Shown here: positions 7,960-38,343 of the stretch, one piece after another
Position numbering within the stretch: the stretch's first letter is position 1
Layout: each line of letters starts with the position of its first letter
DNA from: an uncultured bacterium
Lineage (GTDB): Bacteria > Verrucomicrobiota > Verrucomicrobiia > Verrucomicrobiales > DEV007
DNA: 64,000 nucleotides
Direction of reading: 5' to 3'
Assembly (NCBI GenBank): GCA_963977015.1
Contig: CAXBMO010000001.1
Coordinates: 160,001-224,000, forward strand
The notes under the pieces: model-generated
What the model was told of the DNA's origin: nothing
The model's input: the letters and a program-made list of their open reading frames with translations, nothing else
Databases searched by the model: none
Program-made: the position numbers and the translations under genes

Positions 7960-8748
7960 TCAAACCGCGGGAAAGAAGTGATTGAGCGCCTCTGCGACTC
8001 CTTCGCCGTATTCCGCACCCGCCACGTAGCCCCCGGATAAGCGAACGGTCTCCTTGACCGTTTCGATGGAGTTTGCGGGACAGGCAAGGTGAGCGGCGAC
8101 CTCAGGATCGAGTTTTGGCAGATCGTTGTAGTTGTCGCCAGCTGCGAAAATGCAATCGGCTTCGACGCTGAGGTGTCGACCCAATTCGGCGAGGGAAGTT
8201 CCCTTGTTGAAGTCGCGGTGGGCGAACCGCAAATAGATGGTGTTTCGCTCGTAGTGAATGGATGAGTCGGGATCGGCTTCCCGGTGTGTCTCGATCACCT
8301 CGCAAATTCCGTCCATTTCGGCTTCGGTTGAGGCGATGATTTCATGCGGCGCGTGAGCCTTCTCGATGAATGTGGCAGAGGTCTGGTCCTCGACAAATTT
8401 CTGGATCAATTCGAAGAATTCCGGGGCATGATAAACCATTTCGCGGCAGGCAAAGGCGCGCCTCATGTTCCAGTCGTTCACATCAACCCACTCATCGCCA
8501 TGGGGTTCCAAGAGACAGGTTTCCTCAACAATCAGGTAATCTGGCGGAAACGGGATTCCACACCATTGCAGGCCCTCCTCGGTGTATTCCAGGGTTCGAC
8601 CTGTGTTGACGACCCAAACGGCTCCTTGCCCGCGGAGACGCGTCAATGCGTTGACCAAGGCCTTGTGGACGGGAGGGCTGCCGATCGGATCGACGGTGGT
8701 TCCGTCAAAATCGAGGCTGAGGATGAGGGAAGGGGAGTGATTGGCCAT
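7960..8748 (-). CDS. HAD-superfamily (class IIB) hydrolase
   Basis: SLDFDGT, VNTGR, NKG, AAGDNYNDL motifs I-IV. Confidence 0.88.
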   Translation of the reverse strand: MANHSPSLILSLDFDGTTVDPIGSPPVHKALVNALTRLRGQGAVWVVNTGRTLEYTEEGLQWCGIPFPPDYLIVEETCLLEPHGDEWVDVNDWNMRRAFACREMVYHAPEFFELIQKFVEDQTSATFIEKAHAPHEIIASTEAEMDGICEVIETHREADPDSSIHYERNTIYLRFAHRDFNKGTSLAELGRHLSVEADCIFAAGDNYNDLPKLDPEVAAHLACPANSIETVKETVRLSGGYVAGAEYGEGVAEALNHFFPAV

Positions 8749-8806
8749 GTGTTGTCGCCTTGCTGATTCGCTTTGAAAAGTGTCAGGAGCCGATGATACT
8801 GCGAAT

Positions 8807-9088
8807 ATGAAATCGGCTTACGAACTCGCAATGGAACGTCTCGAAAAAGAGGCGCCCGTAAAGGCTCTGACAGAAGAACAGAAAGAGGAAATCTCAAAGG
8901 TGGAAAATCGCTTCAAAGCGAAGATCGCGGAGAAAGAAGTGTTTCTTCAGGGATTGATTGAGCAAGCGGAAGCTCAGCAAAACCTCGAAGAACTCCTGGC
9001 TCTGAAACAGCAGTTGGCTTCGGAAGTCAACCGCATCAACGCTGACATGGAAGAGGCGAAGGAAAAGATCCGAAAGCGCGAATCCTGA
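8807..9088 (+). CDS. Small coiled-coil hypothetical protein
   Basis: MKSAYELAMERL start; E/K/Q-rich helical composition. Confidence 0.8.
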   Translation: MKSAYELAMERLEKEAPVKALTEEQKEEISKVENRFKAKIAEKEVFLQGLIEQAEAQQNLEELLALKQQLASEVNRINADMEEAKEKIRKRES

Positions 9089-9190
9089 TCCGGTTTTGGA
9101 TCGTCGCGAAGAATCTTCGCGAAAAATAGAATCCCCAATCCGCTGACAATCAACGGGTTAGGGATTTTTGGAATTTTTCTTACAAAACAT

Positions 9191-9218
9191 TAAACAAACT
9201 CTCAGATCTGCATCGCTT
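9191..9218 (+). promoter_or_regulatory. Putative alternative-sigma promoter TAAACAAA-N14-TCGCTT upstream of sRNA copy 1
   Basis: The same two boxes with the same 14-nt spacing lie upstream of copy 2 (26574-26601, - strand), while the spacer sequence has diverged. Confidence 0.55.
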
Positions 9219-9224
9219 TATTAA

Positions 9225-9377
9225 TAGAACGGCGAGAGATCGCCTAAGAATTTCCCCGAGGAACACCGAAACGGACGCTAAATCCCTTCAGTGAATATCG
9301 GGTTCTTCAAAAAAGTGTTGAATTGTGCGCGTGGCTTACGGGCGTGCCTCTCCCCAGAGGCGCGCCCGTTTCCTTTT
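9225..9377 (+). ncRNA. Putative small RNA, sibling copy 1 (5' end estimated)
   Basis: Intergenic; 9295-9366 is identical over 72 nt to the reverse complement of 26409-26480; ends in the hairpin gggcgtgcctct/agaggcgcgccc plus a U-rich tail; 5' GAGA-tetraloop hairpin at 9231-9244. Confidence 0.75.
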
Positions 9378-9569
9378 GCATCTAGGTAGGAAGATTGCCC
9401 GCCGCGTGGATCGCTCGAACAAGACCGGAGCGGTGCAGTAATTACGCGTGCAGTGCAGGAAGAACGCAGTAGGAAGCCAAAGATTCCGCGGTTACTCTTC
9501 CTTCGGCGAAGCCGCACTCTTTACCTGATCCTCGTCAAATTCATTGGCGACAGGTTCACTTGAAATGCA

Positions 9570-10673
9570 CTAGACCCGTCCGGAGAGAGCGGACCGGACC
9601 ATCAACATTTCGCCGAGACTTTGCGAGTTGAAGATGCCGACGATCGGGCCATTGGGCTGGTCAACAACAGGCACGAACGGAACTCGGTCCGTATTCATCA
9701 CCTCAAGGGCTTGCTCGAGTTGGCTCGAACCCAGCACCGGCCGGGAACTCGGCAGCATGGTCAGTGAAATGGGCGCATCCGGGCCATGCTTGCGAAGCCC
9801 GTCCAGAATTCCGTTCTTGCTGAGAAATCCGAGAAAGACGCCGTCTTCGTCAAGAACCGGAAAATCGGATTGGGATTGAGCGACCAACAAATGGGAAGCT
9901 TCGCCAAGCGGCATGTCGGGTGGCAAGGTCTCGAACTTTCGCAGCATCGCCGAGGAAACTGTCAGCCCCTGGATCTGGGCACGCAGTTTGGCGGAGGACG
10001 CTTCCCGGCCTGCAGCAAAGAAGATGAAGATGGCGATAAAGATCAGCACGAAGTTTGCGCCGGGATTGTTGATGGCCCAGAGCCCTCCCAAAACCGCCAG
10101 GAATTGGCCAAGCGCTGCTGCGATCGACGTTGCTCGTGCATGAGGCATGATCGACGCCAAAACGGAACGCAAAACGCGACCACCGTCCATTGGGAACGCC
10201 GGGATCATGTTGAAGACGACCAGGCTGATGTTGACCATGAACATGTAGACCATCAATTGTGATACCGAAAGCGGTGGGAAGCCTTCCGGCATCTCGCCAT
10301 AGGTCGGATTGAGGTAAAGAAAGAGGCCGAGGATGGCGGCAATGACGACGTTGACGGCAGGGCCGGCGACCGCAATGACGAATTCATGCCAAGGGTTGGT
10401 CGGCATTCGTTCAAGCCGGGCCAGACCACCGATGGGCAACAGCGTAATGTCCGGCGTGCGGATTCCGAAAAACCGGCCCGCGAAGGCGTGGCCAAACTCA
10501 TGGAGCACCACACAGGTAAACAGGGCGATCGCGAAAATGACGCCGAAAATTGCACCCGTCATTTCCCCCTCGCGGAAGCCCATGTAGCCGAATCCCGCCA
10601 GCAAGAAAAAGAACGTGAAATGGATTCGGAGCTGTGTGCCGAAAATTCGAGCAATGGGGAAAGACCAGGCCAT
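9570..10673 (-). CDS. Site-2 protease (M50) with CBS domains
   Basis: HEFGH, AVAGPAVN, NMIPAFPMDGGR; C-terminal CBS pair. Confidence 0.95.
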   Translation of the reverse strand: MAWSFPIARIFGTQLRIHFTFFFLLAGFGYMGFREGEMTGAIFGVIFAIALFTCVVLHEFGHAFAGRFFGIRTPDITLLPIGGLARLERMPTNPWHEFVIAVAGPAVNVVIAAILGLFLYLNPTYGEMPEGFPPLSVSQLMVYMFMVNISLVVFNMIPAFPMDGGRVLRSVLASIMPHARATSIAAALGQFLAVLGGLWAINNPGANFVLIFIAIFIFFAAGREASSAKLRAQIQGLTVSSAMLRKFETLPPDMPLGEASHLLVAQSQSDFPVLDEDGVFLGFLSKNGILDGLRKHGPDAPISLTMLPSSRPVLGSSQLEQALEVMNTDRVPFVPVVDQPNGPIVGIFNSQSLGEMLMVRSALSGRV

Positions 10674-17512: not shown

Positions 17513-18484
17513 CTAGGTTTCGGCGAATTCTTCCTCTTCTTCGTCAGCTGCCAGGATGGCACTCTCAAGATCATCGCCTGCTTCGGCTTTTTGACGATCC
17601 TTCACCTTCTTCTTGGTTTCTTCCAAGTCTGGAGTGAGGCCTTTGGCTGGCTTTGGACCAGGATCTTCACGCTTCTGAAGCGCGCGACGCAATTTCTTCA
17701 ATGCGATGTTCTGCAACTGACGAATCCGCTCGCGAGTCACGCCAAATTCCTGGCCAACTTCTTCGAGCGTTTTTGGCTTCTCGCCATTCAGTCCAAATCG
17801 AGCATCGATAATGCGGCGCTCGCGCTCATCCAACACGCTCAACAAGCCATCAAGCTGGTTGTGCATGTTTTTGTGGGAGAGCAACTCAAGAGGCGTTTGG
17901 GCGCGGTCATCACCGATGATTTCACCAAACTCGGTGTTGTCATCATCGCTGATGGGAGCGTCCAAGGATGCTGGACGAAGGCTGGCTGCCTTCAGGTGAG
18001 CCAGTTTCGCGCGATCAATGCCGATTTCCTCGGCCAACTCCTCGTCGGTGGGTTCCCGGCCAAGTTCTTCGGCCAGAACCATCGCCAAGCGGCGCATTTT
18101 TGAAATTTTGTCCACCATGTGAACGGGAAGGCGAATCGTCTTTGACTGGTTCGCCAGCGCTCTTTTGATCGACTGCTTGATCCACCATGCTGCGTAGGTG
18201 GAAAGCTTGCCCCCTTTGTTAGGGTCGAAGCGTTCGACGGCCTTCATGAGGCCGATGTTGCCTTCCGAAATAAGATCGAGAAGCGGTAAGCCGTAGTTGG
18301 CGTAATCTTGGGCAATCTTAACCACAAGTCTGAGGTTCGCCTTGATCATGTGAGCGCGCGCTTCCATGTCGCCTTTCTTAATGCGCTCGGCGAGTTCGAC
18401 TTCTTCCTCACGCGTCAGCAGCGGCGTCTTGCCGATTTCGCGTAGGTAGATTTTGATGCCACCATCTAGTTCTAGGTTTGACAT
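17513..18484 (-). CDS. RNA polymerase sigma70 factor, RpoD/RpoS type, lacking region 1.1
   Basis: YLREIG, ANLRLVVKIA, DLISEGNIGLMKAVERFD, TYAAWWIKQ, TLEEVGQEFGVTRERIRQ. Confidence 0.96.
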   Translation of the reverse strand: MSNLELDGGIKIYLREIGKTPLLTREEEVELAERIKKGDMEARAHMIKANLRLVVKIAQDYANYGLPLLDLISEGNIGLMKAVERFDPNKGGKLSTYAAWWIKQSIKRALANQSKTIRLPVHMVDKISKMRRLAMVLAEELGREPTDEELAEEIGIDRAKLAHLKAASLRPASLDAPISDDDNTEFGEIIGDDRAQTPLELLSHKNMHNQLDGLLSVLDERERRIIDARFGLNGEKPKTLEEVGQEFGVTRERIRQLQNIALKKLRRALQKREDPGPKPAKGLTPDLEETKKKVKDRQKAEAGDDLESAILAADEEEEEFAET

Positions 18485-25926: not shown

Positions 25927-26253
25927 ATGGCAAATTTAATCGAACTTAATGCAGAGAACTTCGCTCAAGAAGTGGAACAAAGTGACGTACCGGTTCTCGT
26001 TGATTACTGGGCTTCCTGGTGCGGACCTTGCCGCATGATTACTCCTATTCTTGAAGAGCTTTCTCAAGATGTCGGTGACAAATTCAAGATCGCGAAGGTC
26101 AATGTCGATGAGCATCAGGACCTCGCTGCTAAATTCGGCGTTCGCAGCCTGCCGACCCTCCTCTTCTTTAAAGGCGGAGAAGTTAAAGACACCGTAGTTG
26201 GCGCAGGAACTCCAAAAGCAGGGCTCCTTCAGAAGCTCGAAGCGCTTGCCTAG
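25927..26253 (+). CDS. trxA: Thioredoxin
   Basis: VLVDYWASWCGPC; FGVRSLPTL. Confidence 0.98.
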   Translation: MANLIELNAENFAQEVEQSDVPVLVDYWASWCGPCRMITPILEELSQDVGDKFKIAKVNVDEHQDLAAKFGVRSLPTLLFFKGGEVKDTVVGAGTPKAGLLQKLEALA

Positions 26254-26324: not shown

Positions 26325-26396
26325 GCGTACCTATTCTTATGGGGGCTGGAAGAAGGGGATCTGAATGAGGTTCTTTCCGCCAATTTCTCATGCGTC

Positions 26397-26567
26397 AAAA
26401 AGAAAACAGGCGCGCCTCTGGGGAGAGGCACGCCCGTAAGCCACGCGCACAATTCAACACTTTTTTGAAGAACCCGATATCCACTGAAGGGAGCTAAGTC
26501 CGGTTCGGTGTTCCTCGGGAAAATTTTCAGCGGCTATCCCGGCTCACCCGGTTTTTGCTGCTTTCAC
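26397..26567 (-). ncRNA. Putative small RNA, sibling copy 2 (5' end estimated)
   Basis: Inverted copy of 9249-9377 with a 72-nt identical core and the same terminator. Confidence 0.75.
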
Positions 26568-26573
26568 AATAAC

Positions 26574-26601
26574 AAGCGAACCAGTTTGGGCCTTTTGTTT
26601 A
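26574..26601 (-). promoter_or_regulatory. Putative promoter TAAACAAA-N14-TCGCTT upstream of sRNA copy 2
   Basis: Minus strand taaacaaa-aggcccaaactggt-tcgctt. Confidence 0.55.
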
Positions 26602-26699: not shown

Positions 26700-27509
26700 C
26701 TAGAGCCACACATTGCTGCCGGCCACATCGGAACTCCAAGGTTTTGCGGTGTTCCGCAAAACGGCTTTCACCAAGGGGGCGCTCAAGTCGGGATACTTGG
26801 AAAGGAGTTTGGCAATCAGCCCGCTCATTCGCGGGGCAGCGTAGCTGCTCCCGGTGACCGTCTTCCACCCTCCATCCAACCAGGGAACGGGAACTTTTTC
26901 GCCACGCGCAAAGAACTCCACCATCTGGCCGGAACGGTAGTGGAAGTCGTCACCTTCGATTCTGCCCATGTTAACCGCTATGACGCTAGGGAAATGCGAT
27001 GGCCACTCCGCGCGAGTGTAGTTGGTGTTGTTGCAGGCCGTAACGATATGCACATCGGCTAGGTAGGCTTTGTCGATCCATGTCTTGAAATAGCGGAAAA
27101 TCGACGGCCGGGCAGGAGTTCCGAAGCTGCAATTGATGATGTGATAGCCTTGATCAATCGCCGCTTGAACCGCCGTTTGCAGGTAGGCCGCTTTTCCGGC
27201 GGTTTGGCCTTCGGTAACCTGCAAGACTTTGAAACTTCCGAGTTCAGCTTCTGGCGCGACCTGATGAATGAGATGGGCAATCGCGGTTCCGTGCCCAAAT
27301 GCGTCTCCGCCTTTGTCTTCCTCGATTTCCATACCCAGATCCGTTTCGATGACAGCATACTGATCGACGATCGGAACGTCTTTCAGGACTGGGTGGGAAG
27401 TGTCGATTCCTGAATCAAGAATCGCAACTTTGATGCCCTTGCCCGTCCCATCCGCCAGTGCTTTTCTGGCCTGGGAGGGGGAAATCCAGGGGAGATTCGG
27501 CTTAGGCAT
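26700..27509 (-). CDS. Small cytoplasmic subtilase (S8)
   Basis: VAILDSGID, GHGTAIA, GSSYAAP catalytic triad; no signal peptide or propeptide. Confidence 0.92.
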   Translation of the reverse strand: MPKPNLPWISPSQARKALADGTGKGIKVAILDSGIDTSHPVLKDVPIVDQYAVIETDLGMEIEEDKGGDAFGHGTAIAHLIHQVAPEAELGSFKVLQVTEGQTAGKAAYLQTAVQAAIDQGYHIINCSFGTPARPSIFRYFKTWIDKAYLADVHIVTACNNTNYTRAEWPSHFPSVIAVNMGRIEGDDFHYRSGQMVEFFARGEKVPVPWLDGGWKTVTGSSYAAPRMSGLIAKLLSKYPDLSAPLVKAVLRNTAKPWSSDVAGSNVWL

Positions 27510-31030: not shown

Positions 31031-31096
31031 TGCTTAAGTGCACTGCCGAACCTTTCCAAGGTTTTGGGAATTGGCTCTTTCCCATCGCGACTTGAG

Positions 31097-32824
31097 CTAG
31101 CCAACAATGATTCCTTTGGCTTTCCGTTCAGCCTCTTTTTCCAAGAGCGGAATATTGACTCCCGTTTCCAGAACTGGGACACCCAGGTCTCCAATCTTGC
31201 TGAGGTTGAGCCCTTCAAAAAGTTCGTGTTCTGCAGCCATGAGCTTGAACACATCTTCGATTAGATAGAGGCCGTTGGAGCCGGTCACACCTTGCGTGAT
31301 GTCGCGGAGAATCTCCCAATCATCCCGAGCCTGACCAAATGGTTCGATGGCGCGATTGAGGCGTTGAAGTCGACCGGCAACGTTGATCATGCTGCCGCGT
31401 TTTTCGGCCCAGCTTGCTCCGGGAAGAACCACATCCGCCAGTTCTGCGGTTGGATTCGCAAGAATGTGGGAAAGAAGGAGGAAATCCAGTTTTTCCAAGG
31501 TTTCAGCCTTCCAGCCGGATTCGATCAAGTCCTCTCCGAAGACAAGGAGGGTTTTAATCTCCCCGCTTTCGATTCCCGACTGGATTTCCGAAAGCTTCGA
31601 GCCCGGTTCCTTTAGTCCGAGGATGGATTTGGCGCCGTTGGTGTTCGGATTACGATCTGCCGAAATCAGGTAGTTATCTGCCTCTTGAGTGTGAGGCACG
31701 ATGTCGATGCGCGAAGTTCCCAGGCCATTCGCGAGGCGTTTGAGCATGAACAACTCCTCATTGGTCATCTTGCCGGAAGCAACGATCGCGATTTGCGTTC
31801 CGTCGGCGTCTCCAAGTCCCAACGCGACTTTGGCGAACGCATCCTTCCACGTTGCGAGGTGATGTTTGCCGTCCTTCTTGATCATCGGGTCCGAAAGCCG
31901 GTCCGGAGAATCGACGTAATGGAAATTCAGCCGGTGAGAATCAGGGATCCAGCACGAATTGACGTCGTTGTTTTCCCGTGGCGTGATCCGATAAATCTTG
32001 TCTTCCCGCGAATGGATCAGGATGTTGGTCCCGGTTCCGCAATTAACGTCGATGGACGGGGTTTCCTTCAGGAACCAAACCCGCATTTGAAAGCGGAAAT
32101 CATTGGAGGTAAGGGCTCCCACCGGACAAATGTCCGCCGTGTTGAGGGAGTAATTGTTGGCCAATTCCTTGCCTGGAGCGACCGCCAACGTGGTGTGGCT
32201 GCCTCGTTCCGTGAATCCGAGCACCGGATCTTCAACAATTTCATCACAGAAGCGAATGCAGCGACTGCACATGATGCAGCGCTCGTCGTCGAGAGTAATG
32301 CGGGGGCCGATCTCCACATTTTTCGGTTTCTGGACCTTTTGCTCGCGAAATCTGGACTCTCCGCTGCCGTGCTCAACGCTGAATTCCTGCAAACGGCATT
32401 CGCCGGCCTGATCACAGATTGGGCAATCCAACGGGTGGTTGATGAGGAGAAATTCCATCACGCCCTTGCGGCATTCTTCCGTGAGGAGGCTGTCGGTTCG
32501 GATGCCCATTCCGTCGGCGATGGTGTTGGCGCATGCGATTGCTGGGCGTGGGATCCACTGGATCGGCAAATGGCCTTCCGCATCCGGTTCCGGCGGATCC
32601 TGCCCCGGGCGTGGTCGAGGCGGCATACCCATTTCCACCAAACACATCCGGCAATTGCCAGGGCTACTGAGCTTGGGGTGGTAGCAATAGTGTGGCACCT
32701 CTTTGCCGACTTGCTTGCAAGCTTCAATCATCCGGGTTCCTTTCGGAAACTGGTGCCACTCCCCGTCAATTTGGACGTTGAACATGGGGACTTCTGAGGG
32801 CTGGTCTGGATCGGCGGCGGCCAT
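31097..32824 (-). CDS. nuoG: NADH-quinone oxidoreductase subunit G-like
   Basis: PHYCYHPKL..GNCRMCLVE, NHPLDCPICDQAGEC, RCIMCSRCIRFC, DICPVGAL; start placed at ATG 32824. Confidence 0.92.
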   Translation of the reverse strand: MAAADPDQPSEVPMFNVQIDGEWHQFPKGTRMIEACKQVGKEVPHYCYHPKLSSPGNCRMCLVEMGMPPRPRPGQDPPEPDAEGHLPIQWIPRPAIACANTIADGMGIRTDSLLTEECRKGVMEFLLINHPLDCPICDQAGECRLQEFSVEHGSGESRFREQKVQKPKNVEIGPRITLDDERCIMCSRCIRFCDEIVEDPVLGFTERGSHTTLAVAPGKELANNYSLNTADICPVGALTSNDFRFQMRVWFLKETPSIDVNCGTGTNILIHSREDKIYRITPRENNDVNSCWIPDSHRLNFHYVDSPDRLSDPMIKKDGKHHLATWKDAFAKVALGLGDADGTQIAIVASGKMTNEELFMLKRLANGLGTSRIDIVPHTQEADNYLISADRNPNTNGAKSILGLKEPGSKLSEIQSGIESGEIKTLLVFGEDLIESGWKAETLEKLDFLLLSHILANPTAELADVVLPGASWAEKRGSMINVAGRLQRLNRAIEPFGQARDDWEILRDITQGVTGSNGLYLIEDVFKLMAAEHELFEGLNLSKIGDLGVPVLETGVNIPLLEKEAERKAKGIIVG

Positions 32825-35931: not shown

Positions 35932-38343
35932 TCAACTAACTTTAGCACAATTTTGCTTGACCAAAATGCGCCACCAACCCGGTAGGAGGATGACGGCGAC
36001 GAACATGGTGCAAACGATTCCCAATGCGCAAGTCTGCCCCAAACTCGCCAGCCCGGGATGTTGCGACCATCCCAAAGATGCGAAGCCGGCCGCCGTCGAA
36101 AGCCCGCACACCAGCAGGGCCTTGCCTGTGGTTTGGCCAACCACGTCCAGGTTTCCGCCGCTTCTGCGCAAGGCCAGCTGGATGTGGATGTTGTAGTCGA
36201 GGCCGGCTCCGAGAAGGAGTGGAATCGCCATGAGATTGATCTGATTCCAGGCAATTCCCAGGCCACGCATCAGTGCCAGCAGCATGACGCAACTTAGGCC
36301 CAATGTCAGGATGCTGAGGACAACGGCCATTGGTGATCGAAACACGAGAAAGAGCGCGACAAACAGCACTACCGCAGAGGGAAGCACGACAAATCTACTG
36401 TCGTGTTGATAGAGGCGTTCCAGTGTCGGGCCCAGATTGTCCCAGCCCAGAAGTGTGATGCGCGGGTCTGCATCGGCCAGCAAGAGAAGCTCATGGCGGG
36501 TTGAATCCAGCCACACTCCGGTGGTTGATGACACGAGTCCTTTCGCGGTGGGCGGTTCGCCGGGCTCGATTCGGACGGCTTGATTCAGGAGCCAGGTCGC
36601 TTCCGGGAGTTTGCTGAAATCCGGCGACCCTCCACCGGCTTTCGCGGCCCACACGTCAAACGCGTTCCTGGCGAAACCAATCGCCGTTTCTCCAAAGTTT
36701 TCATCCAGCTTCTGCTGAACCATCGGCCACGCGGAGGACAGTTGCTGAATCGCGTCCGGGTCTTGATCGGGTTGCGGCCACAAGGCATGGGGAATGGTGG
36801 CTTTGACTCCGTTGAGTTGTTTAACCTGCTCTTCCCAGGATTCCATCGCGAGCCTGACCGACTCTTCGGTTTCTGCGCGAAACAAAACGGCGATAGGTTC
36901 TGCGCCGCCGGCTCCAAGTTCGCGGCGCAAGTTTTCATATTCGACGGCTGTCTCGGAATAGTTCGGGAGCATGGTTTCCGGTCGAGTGTCCATTTGCGGC
37001 AAGCCGCGATCGTGGAGCGCGTAACTTCCGACCGAAAGAATCACCAATCCCGCTCCGATCGCCCAACGGCTTGGGGCGGCGAGCGATCCCATATTGCGCG
37101 GCTTTCGAAGCTGTTTTCGGGCAATGAGCTGGCGGAAGAATGTCAGGCTCACAACGGAGCCCAGCACCAACCCCACACCAACCAGCGTTCCCAATTGAGC
37201 AATGCCGGGAATCGCGCTCAAGTTCAGTGCCGAGAAAACGACGGCAGTGGTTGCCGTTGCCCAAATTACGGGACGCACCACGGCTGTCTGATAGGTGTCG
37301 CTCGGATCGGATGGCTGTACCTGTTCCTGATAAACGATCACATTGTAGTCGACCACCAGCGCAATCAGGATCGCCGCGAACCCGATGCTGATGGCATTGA
37401 GTTCGCCGTAAAGCAGTCCGCCAAAGGAAATCGTCGTCAGGCAGGTGATGGCCAGTCCAATCGTCAGAACAATCAATGGATAGGCCGTGCGATAGACGAG
37501 CAAGAAGAGGAAGAGCACAATTCCAAGCGTAAACACGGCGGAGTAGATCAACTCCAGCCGCATCGTTTGATTCAACTCGACCACATAGGGAGCGTAGCCG
37601 CTGATCAGGATCTCCTCCGGGGTGAACTCGGTCCCGATGCTTTGTTTCCAGGATTCGATTCCCGCTTCAATTTTCGCCTGCCAGGCTGCCATTTCCGCGG
37701 CTTGATTTCGATCGCCGGGAAAATCGATGAGGATGGCCCGCAGGTTCTCGGAACCGAACTCCAGTCCCTCGGTTTGAGCGGAATCAGGCCTCGGCAATCC
37801 CGGGATTTGCGCCAAGCCGAGAGGATCGATGGCGAGAAATGCTTCTTCGGGTTCCAGCGAGAACGACGTCGCCAAGATTTCGAGCGCGGCGTCGATCGCG
37901 GAGTCGACTTCCCCCGGATTCGTCAGTCGTGCGGCCAAATTTCGCAATTCGGCTTGCGGACTGTTCAGCCATCCAAGGCCGGCGAGGGCGCCCATTTCTT
38001 CCAGACCTTCATCATCCTCCCACGGGAAGCGTTCCCGGACTCGATGTTCCAATTCGGGATACATTTCGCGAAGGAAAGCGGCCAGGCTTTCCGCGATTTC
38101 GCGCGGATCGCCGTCAGGAGTTGCCCGGACGGCTACAACCAGGTCGTTCTCTTGCAAAAAGTGACGCTGGTAAACTTCCCGCGCTTCGATTTCCGGTTGG
38201 TCTCGCGGAAGTGCGCTCAGGGGATTGGAGCTGAATTCCGTAAAGCGGCCCGTCACCCAGGTCAGTCCTAAAACCACACCGAGGCTGGCGAGAAGGACCC
38301 ATCTATTTTGCGCAGCTTTCAACTCGTGCCTTCCAAGCCTCAA
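35932..38343 (-). CDS. MMPL/RND-family membrane transporter
   Basis: Two TM repeats with ALVVDY and GAGLDY motifs; TATTAVVFSAL, STAAGFASL. Confidence 0.88.
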   Translation of the reverse strand: MRLGRHELKAAQNRWVLLASLGVVLGLTWVTGRFTEFSSNPLSALPRDQPEIEAREVYQRHFLQENDLVVAVRATPDGDPREIAESLAAFLREMYPELEHRVRERFPWEDDEGLEEMGALAGLGWLNSPQAELRNLAARLTNPGEVDSAIDAALEILATSFSLEPEEAFLAIDPLGLAQIPGLPRPDSAQTEGLEFGSENLRAILIDFPGDRNQAAEMAAWQAKIEAGIESWKQSIGTEFTPEEILISGYAPYVVELNQTMRLELIYSAVFTLGIVLFLFLLVYRTAYPLIVLTIGLAITCLTTISFGGLLYGELNAISIGFAAILIALVVDYNVIVYQEQVQPSDPSDTYQTAVVRPVIWATATTAVVFSALNLSAIPGIAQLGTLVGVGLVLGSVVSLTFFRQLIARKQLRKPRNMGSLAAPSRWAIGAGLVILSVGSYALHDRGLPQMDTRPETMLPNYSETAVEYENLRRELGAGGAEPIAVLFRAETEESVRLAMESWEEQVKQLNGVKATIPHALWPQPDQDPDAIQQLSSAWPMVQQKLDENFGETAIGFARNAFDVWAAKAGGGSPDFSKLPEATWLLNQAVRIEPGEPPTAKGLVSSTTGVWLDSTRHELLLLADADPRITLLGWDNLGPTLERLYQHDSRFVVLPSAVVLFVALFLVFRSPMAVVLSILTLGLSCVMLLALMRGLGIAWNQINLMAIPLLLGAGLDYNIHIQLALRRSGGNLDVVGQTTGKALLVCGLSTAAGFASLGWSQHPGLASLGQTCALGIVCTMFVAVILLPGWWRILVKQNCAKVS

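Follow-up and report, generated by a model that had tools for sequence, protein, structure and literature searches.

In a 64,000-nucleotide stretch of the genome of an uncultured Verrucomicrobiales bacterium (the window; contig CAXBMO010000001.1, positions 160,001 to 224,000), we identified two copies (A and B) of a family of predicted small RNAs (sRNAs) that share with a third copy (C), located elsewhere in the host genome (6.89 Mb, 51 contigs, 95% complete), an invariant 21-nt core, a covarying terminator hairpin and an upstream promoter-like motif. We describe it as a sibling-sRNA family that is new and stands out for the tidiness of its regulon and the rigidity of its core. In our preferred reading, to which we give a probability of about 0.55, the siblings would be transcribed under the control of an alternative sigma factor and would act in trans by base pairing through the invariant stretch.

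Copy A is predicted to be an sRNA of ~150 nt (9225-9377, plus strand; putative start 7-10 nt past the -10-like box), and copy B one of ~170 nt (26396-26568, minus strand; from its sequence, its alignment with A and its folds). An earlier note, made from the letters of the window, had reported that positions 9295-9366 equal the reverse complement of 26409-26480. This holds letter for letter over 72 nt, the longest exact run, and the chance expectation for an exact pair of this length within 64 kb is ~1e-34. We searched positions 9240-9380 against the host genome by BLAST, yielding 7 matches, of which 3 were significant (E-values of 1.7e-68, 1.2e-48 and 5.3e-16) and the remaining 4 had E-values above 2.9. 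The alignment with copy B extends at 93% identity across query positions 10-138. A further match, at 88% identity over query positions 74-137, lies on a separate contig (C24, 30942-31005, minus strand) and belongs to copy C (G000:C24:30933-31033, minus strand), which comprises the 3' half of the family. The note had spoken of a pair of siblings: both window copies are real, and the genome holds a trio. It had also seen no open reading frame (ORF) starting with ATG in common, and indeed no ATG was found on either strand of either copy.

The conserved unit, as the alignment presents it, is a 3' module common to three kinds of predicted transcript, and not the whole ~150-nt RNA. In an alignment of 22 full copies (~100 nt), conservation begins abruptly at GGGTTCTTC, with which the module opens in copy A as a single-stranded U/A-rich linker (TTCTTCAAAAAA, 9303-9314, plus strand), the length of the A/U-rich linker being variable among copies. 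It is followed by the 21-nt core GTGTTGAATTGTGCGCGTGGC (copy A, 9315-9335, plus strand; copy B, 26440-26460, minus strand), a candidate seed or binding site that is predicted to be unpaired in copy A and that is constant in 22 of 22 aligned copies, while the adjoining stem varies freely. Indels take the form of a 1-2-nt insertion after GTGTTG in 4 copies and of one T fewer in 2. Single-sequence folds of A and B leave the linker and the larger part of the core without pairing partners, between the 5' domain and the terminator; a UUCAA/UUGAA mini-hairpin and a GUGU/GCGC pairing are possible within the core, with only invariant columns involved. An antiterminator pairing with the 5' half of the terminator was considered and discarded, this pairing being unconserved in the alignment.

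The module ends with a predicted intrinsic terminator, located in copy A at 9338-9377 on the plus strand (stem 9338-9369, T-rich tail 9370-9377) and in copy B at 26396-26437 on the minus strand (stem 26437-26406, T-rich tail 26405-26396). Both have the 14-bp GC-rich stem, 4-nt loop and T-rich tail expected of such terminators, so that the earlier observation of the same GC hairpin and U tail at the two copies stands. Across the 22 copies, 13 of 13 pairs vary and 10 of these change on both sides. Standard pairs occupy 99.3% of the 286 cells; shifting the partner 1-3 columns lowers this share to 34-56%, and the observed values were matched by none of 500 shuffles. G-U pairs are frequent, one pair being UG in 9 of the 22 copies, for instance; read from the opposite strand they would be mismatched, which shows that selection on the structure acts on the sense strand, at the level of RNA.

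Ahead of the module, copies of the A and B types within the genus share a 5' domain made of a small hairpin and a second hairpin closed by CCCGA/TCGGG. The first stem-loop lies at 9231-9244 on the plus strand in copy A (GGCGA-GAGA-TCGCC) and at 26551-26538 on the minus strand in copy B; the two sequences differ yet both pair, and within the genus pairs change on both sides. The second lies at 9255-9302 on the plus strand in copy A, with a species-variable interior, and at 26519-26473 on the minus strand in copy B. The predicted folds have a minimum free energy of -57.5 kcal/mol for copy A (z = -3.4 against shuffled sequences) and of -62.4 kcal/mol for copy B (z = -2.9).

The motif TTTAGACAAA-N14-YCGCT was found upstream of all 23 genome copies of the family, in 9 genomes. 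Loci A and B share an upstream block composed of TTTAAACAAA, 14 nt and TCGCT, and their surrounding sequence is otherwise unrelated. In copy A, the motif spans 9192-9217 on the plus strand (AAACAAA at 9192-9198, a 14-nt spacer and TCGCT at 9213-9217; 33.7 bits), and in copy B it spans 26575-26600 on the minus strand (AAACAAA at 26600-26594, a 14-nt spacer and TCGCT at 26579-26575; 30.1 bits). The regular expression A[N]ACA[AG]A-N14-NCGC[TC] was run on 34 loci and gave 26 distinct matches, 25 of which are followed on the same strand, after 95-936 nt, by the invariant core, the last one being a stray. Two loci of a gene described below as gene X were missed by this expression; they carry AGACAAG and AGACAAT, each with one mismatch, at the same 14-nt spacing from CCGCT. 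Across copies, the motif can be written as A[GAC]ACAAA-N14-NCGCT. The spacer is free in sequence and fixed in length at 14 nt, which is the signature of a two-box promoter. We then scanned the whole 6.9-Mb genome with a position weight matrix (PWM) built from the 25 instances (scores 23-36 bits) and thus partly trained on the host genome's own three sites. The three loci scored 33.7, 33.6 and 30.1 bits and the next site 16.6 bits; as the instances from other genomes score at least 23 bits, a comparable fourth site in the host genome would have been seen.

No sigma-70 consensus promoter was found upstream of copy A or copy B. The motif is probably the promoter of an alternative sigma factor of the extracytoplasmic function (ECF) type, given its AAC-like -35 box and CG-containing -10 box, judged against the consensus sequences of such promoters; as expected of an ECF regulon, a bipartite promoter-like motif of fixed spacing, distinct from the sigma-70 consensus, recurs across species. 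The host genome has 56 Sigma70_r2 matches, and many ECF-type sigma factors are therefore available; none of these matches adjoins the three loci. The next-best two PWM sites yielded no candidate sigma gene, as they precede a polyketide-cyclase-like gene and an unassigned gene. In the window, roughly midway between copies A and B, 17513-18484 (minus strand) encodes a 323-aa sigma-70 family protein with regions 2-4. It was discarded as the cognate sigma factor, being group-2/3-like and not ECF-type, and no link between it and the sRNAs was found.

To delimit the family, we built a covariance model on the 3' module and searched the 134 genomes of the bacterial family with a cut-off of E < 1e-10. 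The search retrieved 23 copies in 9 genomes from five Verrucomicrobiales genera, mostly three per genome, with 3 copies in the host genome and 1-3 (mostly 3) in each of the 8 other positive genomes. With the host genome left out, positive genomes amounted to 3/3 in genus g1, 1/1 in each of g34, g8 and g39, and 2/3 in g40; none of the 58 genomes of the largest genus of the family was positive with this model. One weak match was returned from each of 7 further family genomes; four of them fit the terminator only and one (L049) lies inside a coding region, and these were discarded, and two (L044 and L048) retain AATTGTGCGCGTG-like words. In a sample of 151 genomes of the order, matches were found in family f1 only, with none in the 114 genomes from seven other families. 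Among 41 related genomes searched by BLAST, the 3 other species of the genus all carried copies, as did one other genus. Judged from these searches, the family is real, narrow, rare and lineage-restricted within Verrucomicrobiales.

Broader searches gave the following picture. An exact 20-mer of the core, searched against one genome for each of 185,579 species, matched 16 stretches, 15 of which belong to 8 metagenome-assembled genomes (MAGs) labelled Verrucomicrobia, Verrucomicrobiales or Verrucomicrobiota, which bears out the phylum that the earlier note had named; the 16th (L031, from an Actinomycetota MAG) is coding sequence with no hairpin and was taken as a chance match. A gapped core pattern searched against a metagenome collection retrieved 8 stretches, namely 3 TARA contigs, 4 relatives and 1 coding match (L104), which has no hairpin and was likewise put down to chance. 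The copies on the TARA marine contigs (L103, L107 and L109) score identically to A, B and C of the host, and these contigs presumably come from the same organism as the window. One of the 8 MAGs, labelled Akkermansia muciniphila (L022, L032), has three copies and groups with genus g40; its label is probably wrong. Carriers include marine and freshwater Verrucomicrobia.

We scanned the 64-kb window and 11 related loci with Rfam 15 (4227 models, including Qrr, OmrA-B, MicA, RybB, 6S, tmRNA, signal recognition particle (SRP) RNA and riboswitches) at the family gathering thresholds and obtained no match. Permissive scans gave chance-level matches only (E-values of at least 0.13), the best being to the PyrG leader (21.8 bits, threshold 65) and the L20 leader (19.8 bits, threshold 58.7). 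The earlier note had recognised no tRNA, 6S, tmRNA, SRP RNA or known riboswitch and had proposed this very scan, along with a search for further copies and covariation, to which the 23 copies and the 10 covarying terminator pairs now answer. A full-text literature search, with most subscription journals and supplementary motif lists outside its coverage, found no paper describing such an RNA in Verrucomicrobia. The note's suggestion of an undescribed multicopy regulatory sRNA family is thus in line with the Rfam result, with the three copies per genome and with the covariation; the regulatory function is what we infer.

A 152-aa gene, here called gene X, precedes copy C by 238 nt in the same orientation and itself has the promoter motif directly upstream. 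The two are co-inherited: gene X was found in 8 of the 134 family genomes, all 8 of them sRNA-positive, and in 8 of 8 an sRNA copy follows 70-313 nt downstream on the same strand, the sole sRNA-positive genome without gene X being only 59% complete. Copy C and its orthologues thus show the layout of an sRNA derived from a 3' untranslated region (UTR), of the CpxQ or CcsR type, with the motif upstream of gene X, which A and B do not. Gene X encodes a single-pass membrane protein that has a helix at its N terminus, an invariant membrane segment (W-AAAAL) and a ~60-aa C-terminal domain. Five of the 8 homologues match the NCBIfam anti-sigma model NF052375 below threshold (best E-value 0.0011; cut-off 100 bits), and in the ESM Atlas the nearest Pfam-bearing cluster has zf-HC2 in 13% of its members, the neighbours being Verrucomicrobiota proteins. 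Pfam gave a sub-threshold match to DUF2149 only, and no relative was found among solved structures. We regard the anti-sigma-like character of gene X as a lead, not an assignment.

The module also ends other predicted transcripts. In genus g40, gene X is directly followed by one copy; ~475 nt beyond it, a second copy closes the mRNA of a small, conserved ORF (~72 aa), which is equipped with a separate promoter motif, and a third ends a ~330-nt RNA. The small ORF (MAHLPLHGLQTKAQRLH...) sits between the two tandem sRNA copies (L054:1126-1500, L056:1600-1960). In the host genome and five others, the module is preceded by a conserved stretch of ~100 nt around ACCTCCCCA-GGCG, located between gene X (or the promoter motif) and the sRNA module (G000:C24 ~31040-31270, minus strand, L059:1625-1735; orthologues in L052, L055, L043, L040 and L039). 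It has the form TCTCGC...GGG..GAGCAG...hairpin...ACCTCCCCA.GGCG.A.CTGC...CCC...GCGAGA, and 7 of its 18 predicted pairs change on both sides. Open frames cross this stretch in differing phases among genera, which suggests RNA structure, and it is probably a structured RNA domain; it had no Rfam match.

With at least two paralogous non-coding genes per genome and a conserved single-stranded region, the family has the makeup of sibling sRNAs. The layout runs from a regulated promoter through a structured 5' part and an accessible conserved stretch to a terminator, which led us to put trans-acting sRNAs that work by base pairing first. In the mechanism that we propose, each sibling would be transcribed from a dedicated promoter, with TTTAGACAAA as the -35-like box, 14 nt and YCGCT as the -10-like box, and in the host genome this promoter would drive only the three sRNA loci. 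The 5' parts would differ, consisting of two small hairpins in A and B and elsewhere of the mRNA of a membrane protein or a small ORF, or else of a long structured leader, and all transcripts would end alike with the U/A-rich linker, the single-stranded invariant 21 nt and a Rho-independent terminator. Activation of the cognate sigma factor would make the siblings accumulate, longer precursors would plausibly be processed at the linker (GGGUUCUUC), and the invariant stretch would then pair with mRNAs in trans and alter their translation or stability. What the sequences show is the family, its structure, the promoter motif common to its copies and the joint inheritance with gene X; transcription, the sigma-factor type, the trans action by base pairing and the targets are what we infer.

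In search of targets, we performed a genome-wide k-mer search for complements of the core. The longest non-self complement is 14 nt and lies at -20 to -7 of a TolC-like gene encoding a 684-aa signal-peptide protein of the TolC/OEP family; in the host genome only, none of 300 shuffled cores paired as well with this 5' region. We consider this gene a weak lead as an sRNA target. A duplex-energy scan of 5,084 crude 5' regions returned 4 start-codon-proximal sites at or below -27 kcal/mol (1.6 +/- 1.3 for shuffled cores), the fourth of which is at C2:342315 and belongs to a SASA esterase. No start-codon site was found in 5 other genomes by a 16-mer search allowing 2 mismatches, and gene X mRNAs have no consistent core-pairing site. 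A 12-mer at the thymidylate kinase gene was discarded as a target, as it is not conserved in orthologues. Separately, five genomes from four genera have an invariant AATTCAAG(C)TCTTT element that follows ATTATTT and precedes the thymidylate kinase gene by ~90-150 nt (G000:C10 ~36850-36900, that is L122:950-1000 on the minus strand, and L123-L126); it resembles part of the complement of the core, and pairing would be weak and inconsistent between genomes.

Several results weigh against sigma-driven siblings that act by base pairing. At the TolC-like gene, all that same-genus orthologues retain ahead of the ATG is ACA-ATTCAACAC, with duplexes that do not stand out (38 and 137 of 300 shuffles), and the site is absent from the orthologue in another genus. 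The energy scan did no better than shuffled cores, 10 of 100 shuffles being as extreme, and two of its four best sites, at a PhoH-PIN gene and a 184-aa ORF, were rejected as unconserved in orthologues. Exact complements of at least 12 nt near start codons are in marginal excess (2 against 0.25 expected), a level reached by 7 of 200 shuffles. In the 95%-complete host genome, Hfq (PF17209) had 0 matches, with control genomes positive, and the ProQ and CsrA families were not found. The invariance of the core, 21 nt over five genera, exceeds what a seed typically needs. On the promoter side, the genome-wide PWM scan found no sigma gene in the host genome that carries the motif, the matrix was built in part from the three host sites, and the transcription of the siblings is itself a prediction from sequence, a search for sequencing runs that contain window positions 8700-9700 having listed none from RNA.

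That same length of the core, constant over five genera beside a freely changing helix and beyond typical seed conservation, is what speaks for an RNA that binds a protein, the 21 nt, perhaps with the GGGTTCTTC linker, being recognised by a conserved RNA-binding protein that the siblings would titrate, recruit or deliver, as CsrB acts on CsrA and 6S RNA on RNA polymerase. The scans yielded no mRNA target that was convincingly conserved, titration would be well served by multiple copies per genome behind a single promoter, and the same sigma/anti-sigma circuit could include the partner. As the searches found no Hfq, ProQ or CsrA, any partner would be an unknown protein; this negative and the unusual invariant length together leave room for a protein-binding role. 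On the other side, there is one site per RNA here, against many in known titrating RNAs; gene X, the sole co-inherited gene, encodes a membrane protein in which no RNA-binding signature was seen; the analysis brought up no candidate protein; and the 1-2-nt insertions after GTGTTG are as compatible with a bulged duplex as with a protein site in two parts. We hold protein binding to be unlikely. A bolder version, which we think distinctly unlikely, would make the 21-nt module the handle of a new RNA-protein system in a sigma/anti-sigma circuit without Hfq, ProQ or CsrA, in which one dedicated sigma factor would transcribe only its own anti-sigma-like protein and the three RNAs, and the RNAs would either act back on the circuit or bring an unknown RNA-binding protein to targets set by their variable 5' domains. 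The module could also act in cis, as a specialised terminator with an upstream element that terminates, stabilises or marks its own transcripts, namely the mRNAs of gene X and of small ORFs as well as short non-coding RNAs, and has no function in trans. It always stands at the 3' end, joined to unrelated 5' parts including protein-coding mRNAs, and its conservation starts abruptly at the linker. Copies A and B have only ~90 nt of non-coding hairpins ahead of it under a strongly conserved promoter that drives little else, and a purely cis-acting module fits them poorly; moreover, the terminator stem is free to vary, so the invariant 21 nt is not needed for termination as such. We rate this possibility as improbable.

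The remaining explanations have far less in their favour. The absolute sequence invariance of the 21 bp is typical of protein-DNA sites, and an operator or recombination site read as double-stranded DNA would explain it; yet the element always has one orientation, just 5' of a covarying hairpin and T-tract and downstream of a promoter motif, the 21-mer is not palindromic, and transcript 3' ends between convergent genes are no position for an operator, which makes a DNA-level site very improbable. A small protein gene of ~30 codons running from a GTG at 9302 through core and hairpin is open in both window copies, and short frames cross the core elsewhere. Besides the absence of an ATG on either strand of A and B, the 1- and 2-nt indels of the conserved part in L008, L014 and L017 shift the frame and exclude a shared reading frame, and the part past the core evolves by compensatory base-pair changes and not by codon-like substitution, so that we consider this reading extremely improbable. 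A multicopy intergenic repeat with a palindromic part might finally be a miniature inverted-repeat transposable element (MITE) or another repeat spread by transposition. The earlier note had seen neither a terminal inverted repeat nor a transposase and had named dozens of copies as the mark of a MITE; there are only 3 copies in 6.9 Mb, at loci that are syntenic between species (an S8 peptidase gene, for example, also precedes the orthologue of copy B in another species), and these two facts exclude a mobile element. In the palindrome, pairing is maintained while the sequence changes, and G-U pairs are used; apart from the covarying terminator there is no inverted repeat, all copies are oriented alike relative to the promoter motif, and no transposase is nearby; a MITE is next to impossible.

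Sibling sRNAs under an alternative sigma factor, the reading that we prefer, would have one of their closest functional parallels in the sigmaE-dependent envelope-stress sRNAs of E. coli (MicA, RybB and MicL; PMC4102768). As in E. coli, several small RNAs would here be driven by one ECF sigma promoter, end with an intrinsic terminator and act in trans; MicL is made within or at the end of a protein-coding gene, to which we liken the module-bearing mRNAs; and the weak target lead here is also an outer-membrane protein gene. The two differ in that there is no sequence or Rfam relationship, that the E. coli RNAs are mutually unrelated whereas one invariant module recurs here, and that Hfq was not found in the host genome. 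DUF1127-linked sibling sRNAs stand behind a small protein gene on one transcript, under a stress-sigma promoter, and are co-inherited with it, as gene X, and in one genus the ~72-aa ORF, is followed by a sibling copy; they belong to another phylum, however, gene X encodes a single-pass membrane protein and not DUF1127, and two siblings here are free-standing elsewhere, each with its own copy of the promoter.

The Qrr1-5 RNAs of Vibrio and OmrA/OmrB of enterobacteria are nearly identical sRNAs encoded in several copies, whose loci are unlinked or adjacent; they share a type of promoter, and they contain a single-stranded region of high conservation as well as a terminator. The earlier note had likened the window copies to them; the organisation is indeed alike, and the likeness ends there, with no sequence or Rfam relationship, no Hfq found, a promoter motif that, by our reading, is not of the sigma-54 type, and a conserved part that is the 3' half with variable 5' domains. 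CpxQ is released from the cpxP mRNA's 3' UTR, cpxP encoding a small envelope-stress signalling protein that damps the pathway. Gene X followed by copy C has the same layout, although the anti-sigma-like matches of gene X stay below threshold and amount to a lead. All of these systems are unrelated to the family in sequence, and such Rfam models as exist for them gave no match.

Hardly any regulatory RNAs are known from the Planctomycetes-Verrucomicrobia-Chlamydiae (PVC) superphylum, and riboregulation in Verrucomicrobia is essentially unexplored; according to Table 1 of a 2022 survey (PMC9029176), distinct annotated sRNAs number 8 in the whole PVC group and 345 in Proteobacteria. The family offers a testable entry point, with a three-locus promoter motif, a co-inherited anti-sigma-like protein and an invariant 21-nt element, and it comes with natural variation, the same module being free-standing, borne on a 3' UTR or carried on a long leader. 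It could show riboregulation without Hfq, ProQ or CsrA, and how 3'-UTR sRNAs and free-standing siblings arise from one another.

Both window copies are intergenic and have unrelated neighbours, as previously noticed from the letters. Copy A is preceded by a 102-aa ORF (8780-9088, plus strand) and faces a convergent M50/CBS protease gene (9570-10673, minus strand), and copy B is preceded by an S8 peptidase gene (26700-27509, minus strand) and faces a convergent thioredoxin gene (25927-26253, plus strand). The downstream genes being convergent, A and B cannot be 5' leaders, and a riboswitch or other cis-regulatory 5' leader was ruled out for both. Between the 102-aa ORF, which is predicted to be coiled-coil, and copy A lies a hairpin of ~20 bp flanked by A/T runs (9121-9171); it is probably a bidirectional terminator of the upstream gene, in which case copy A would be its own transcription unit.

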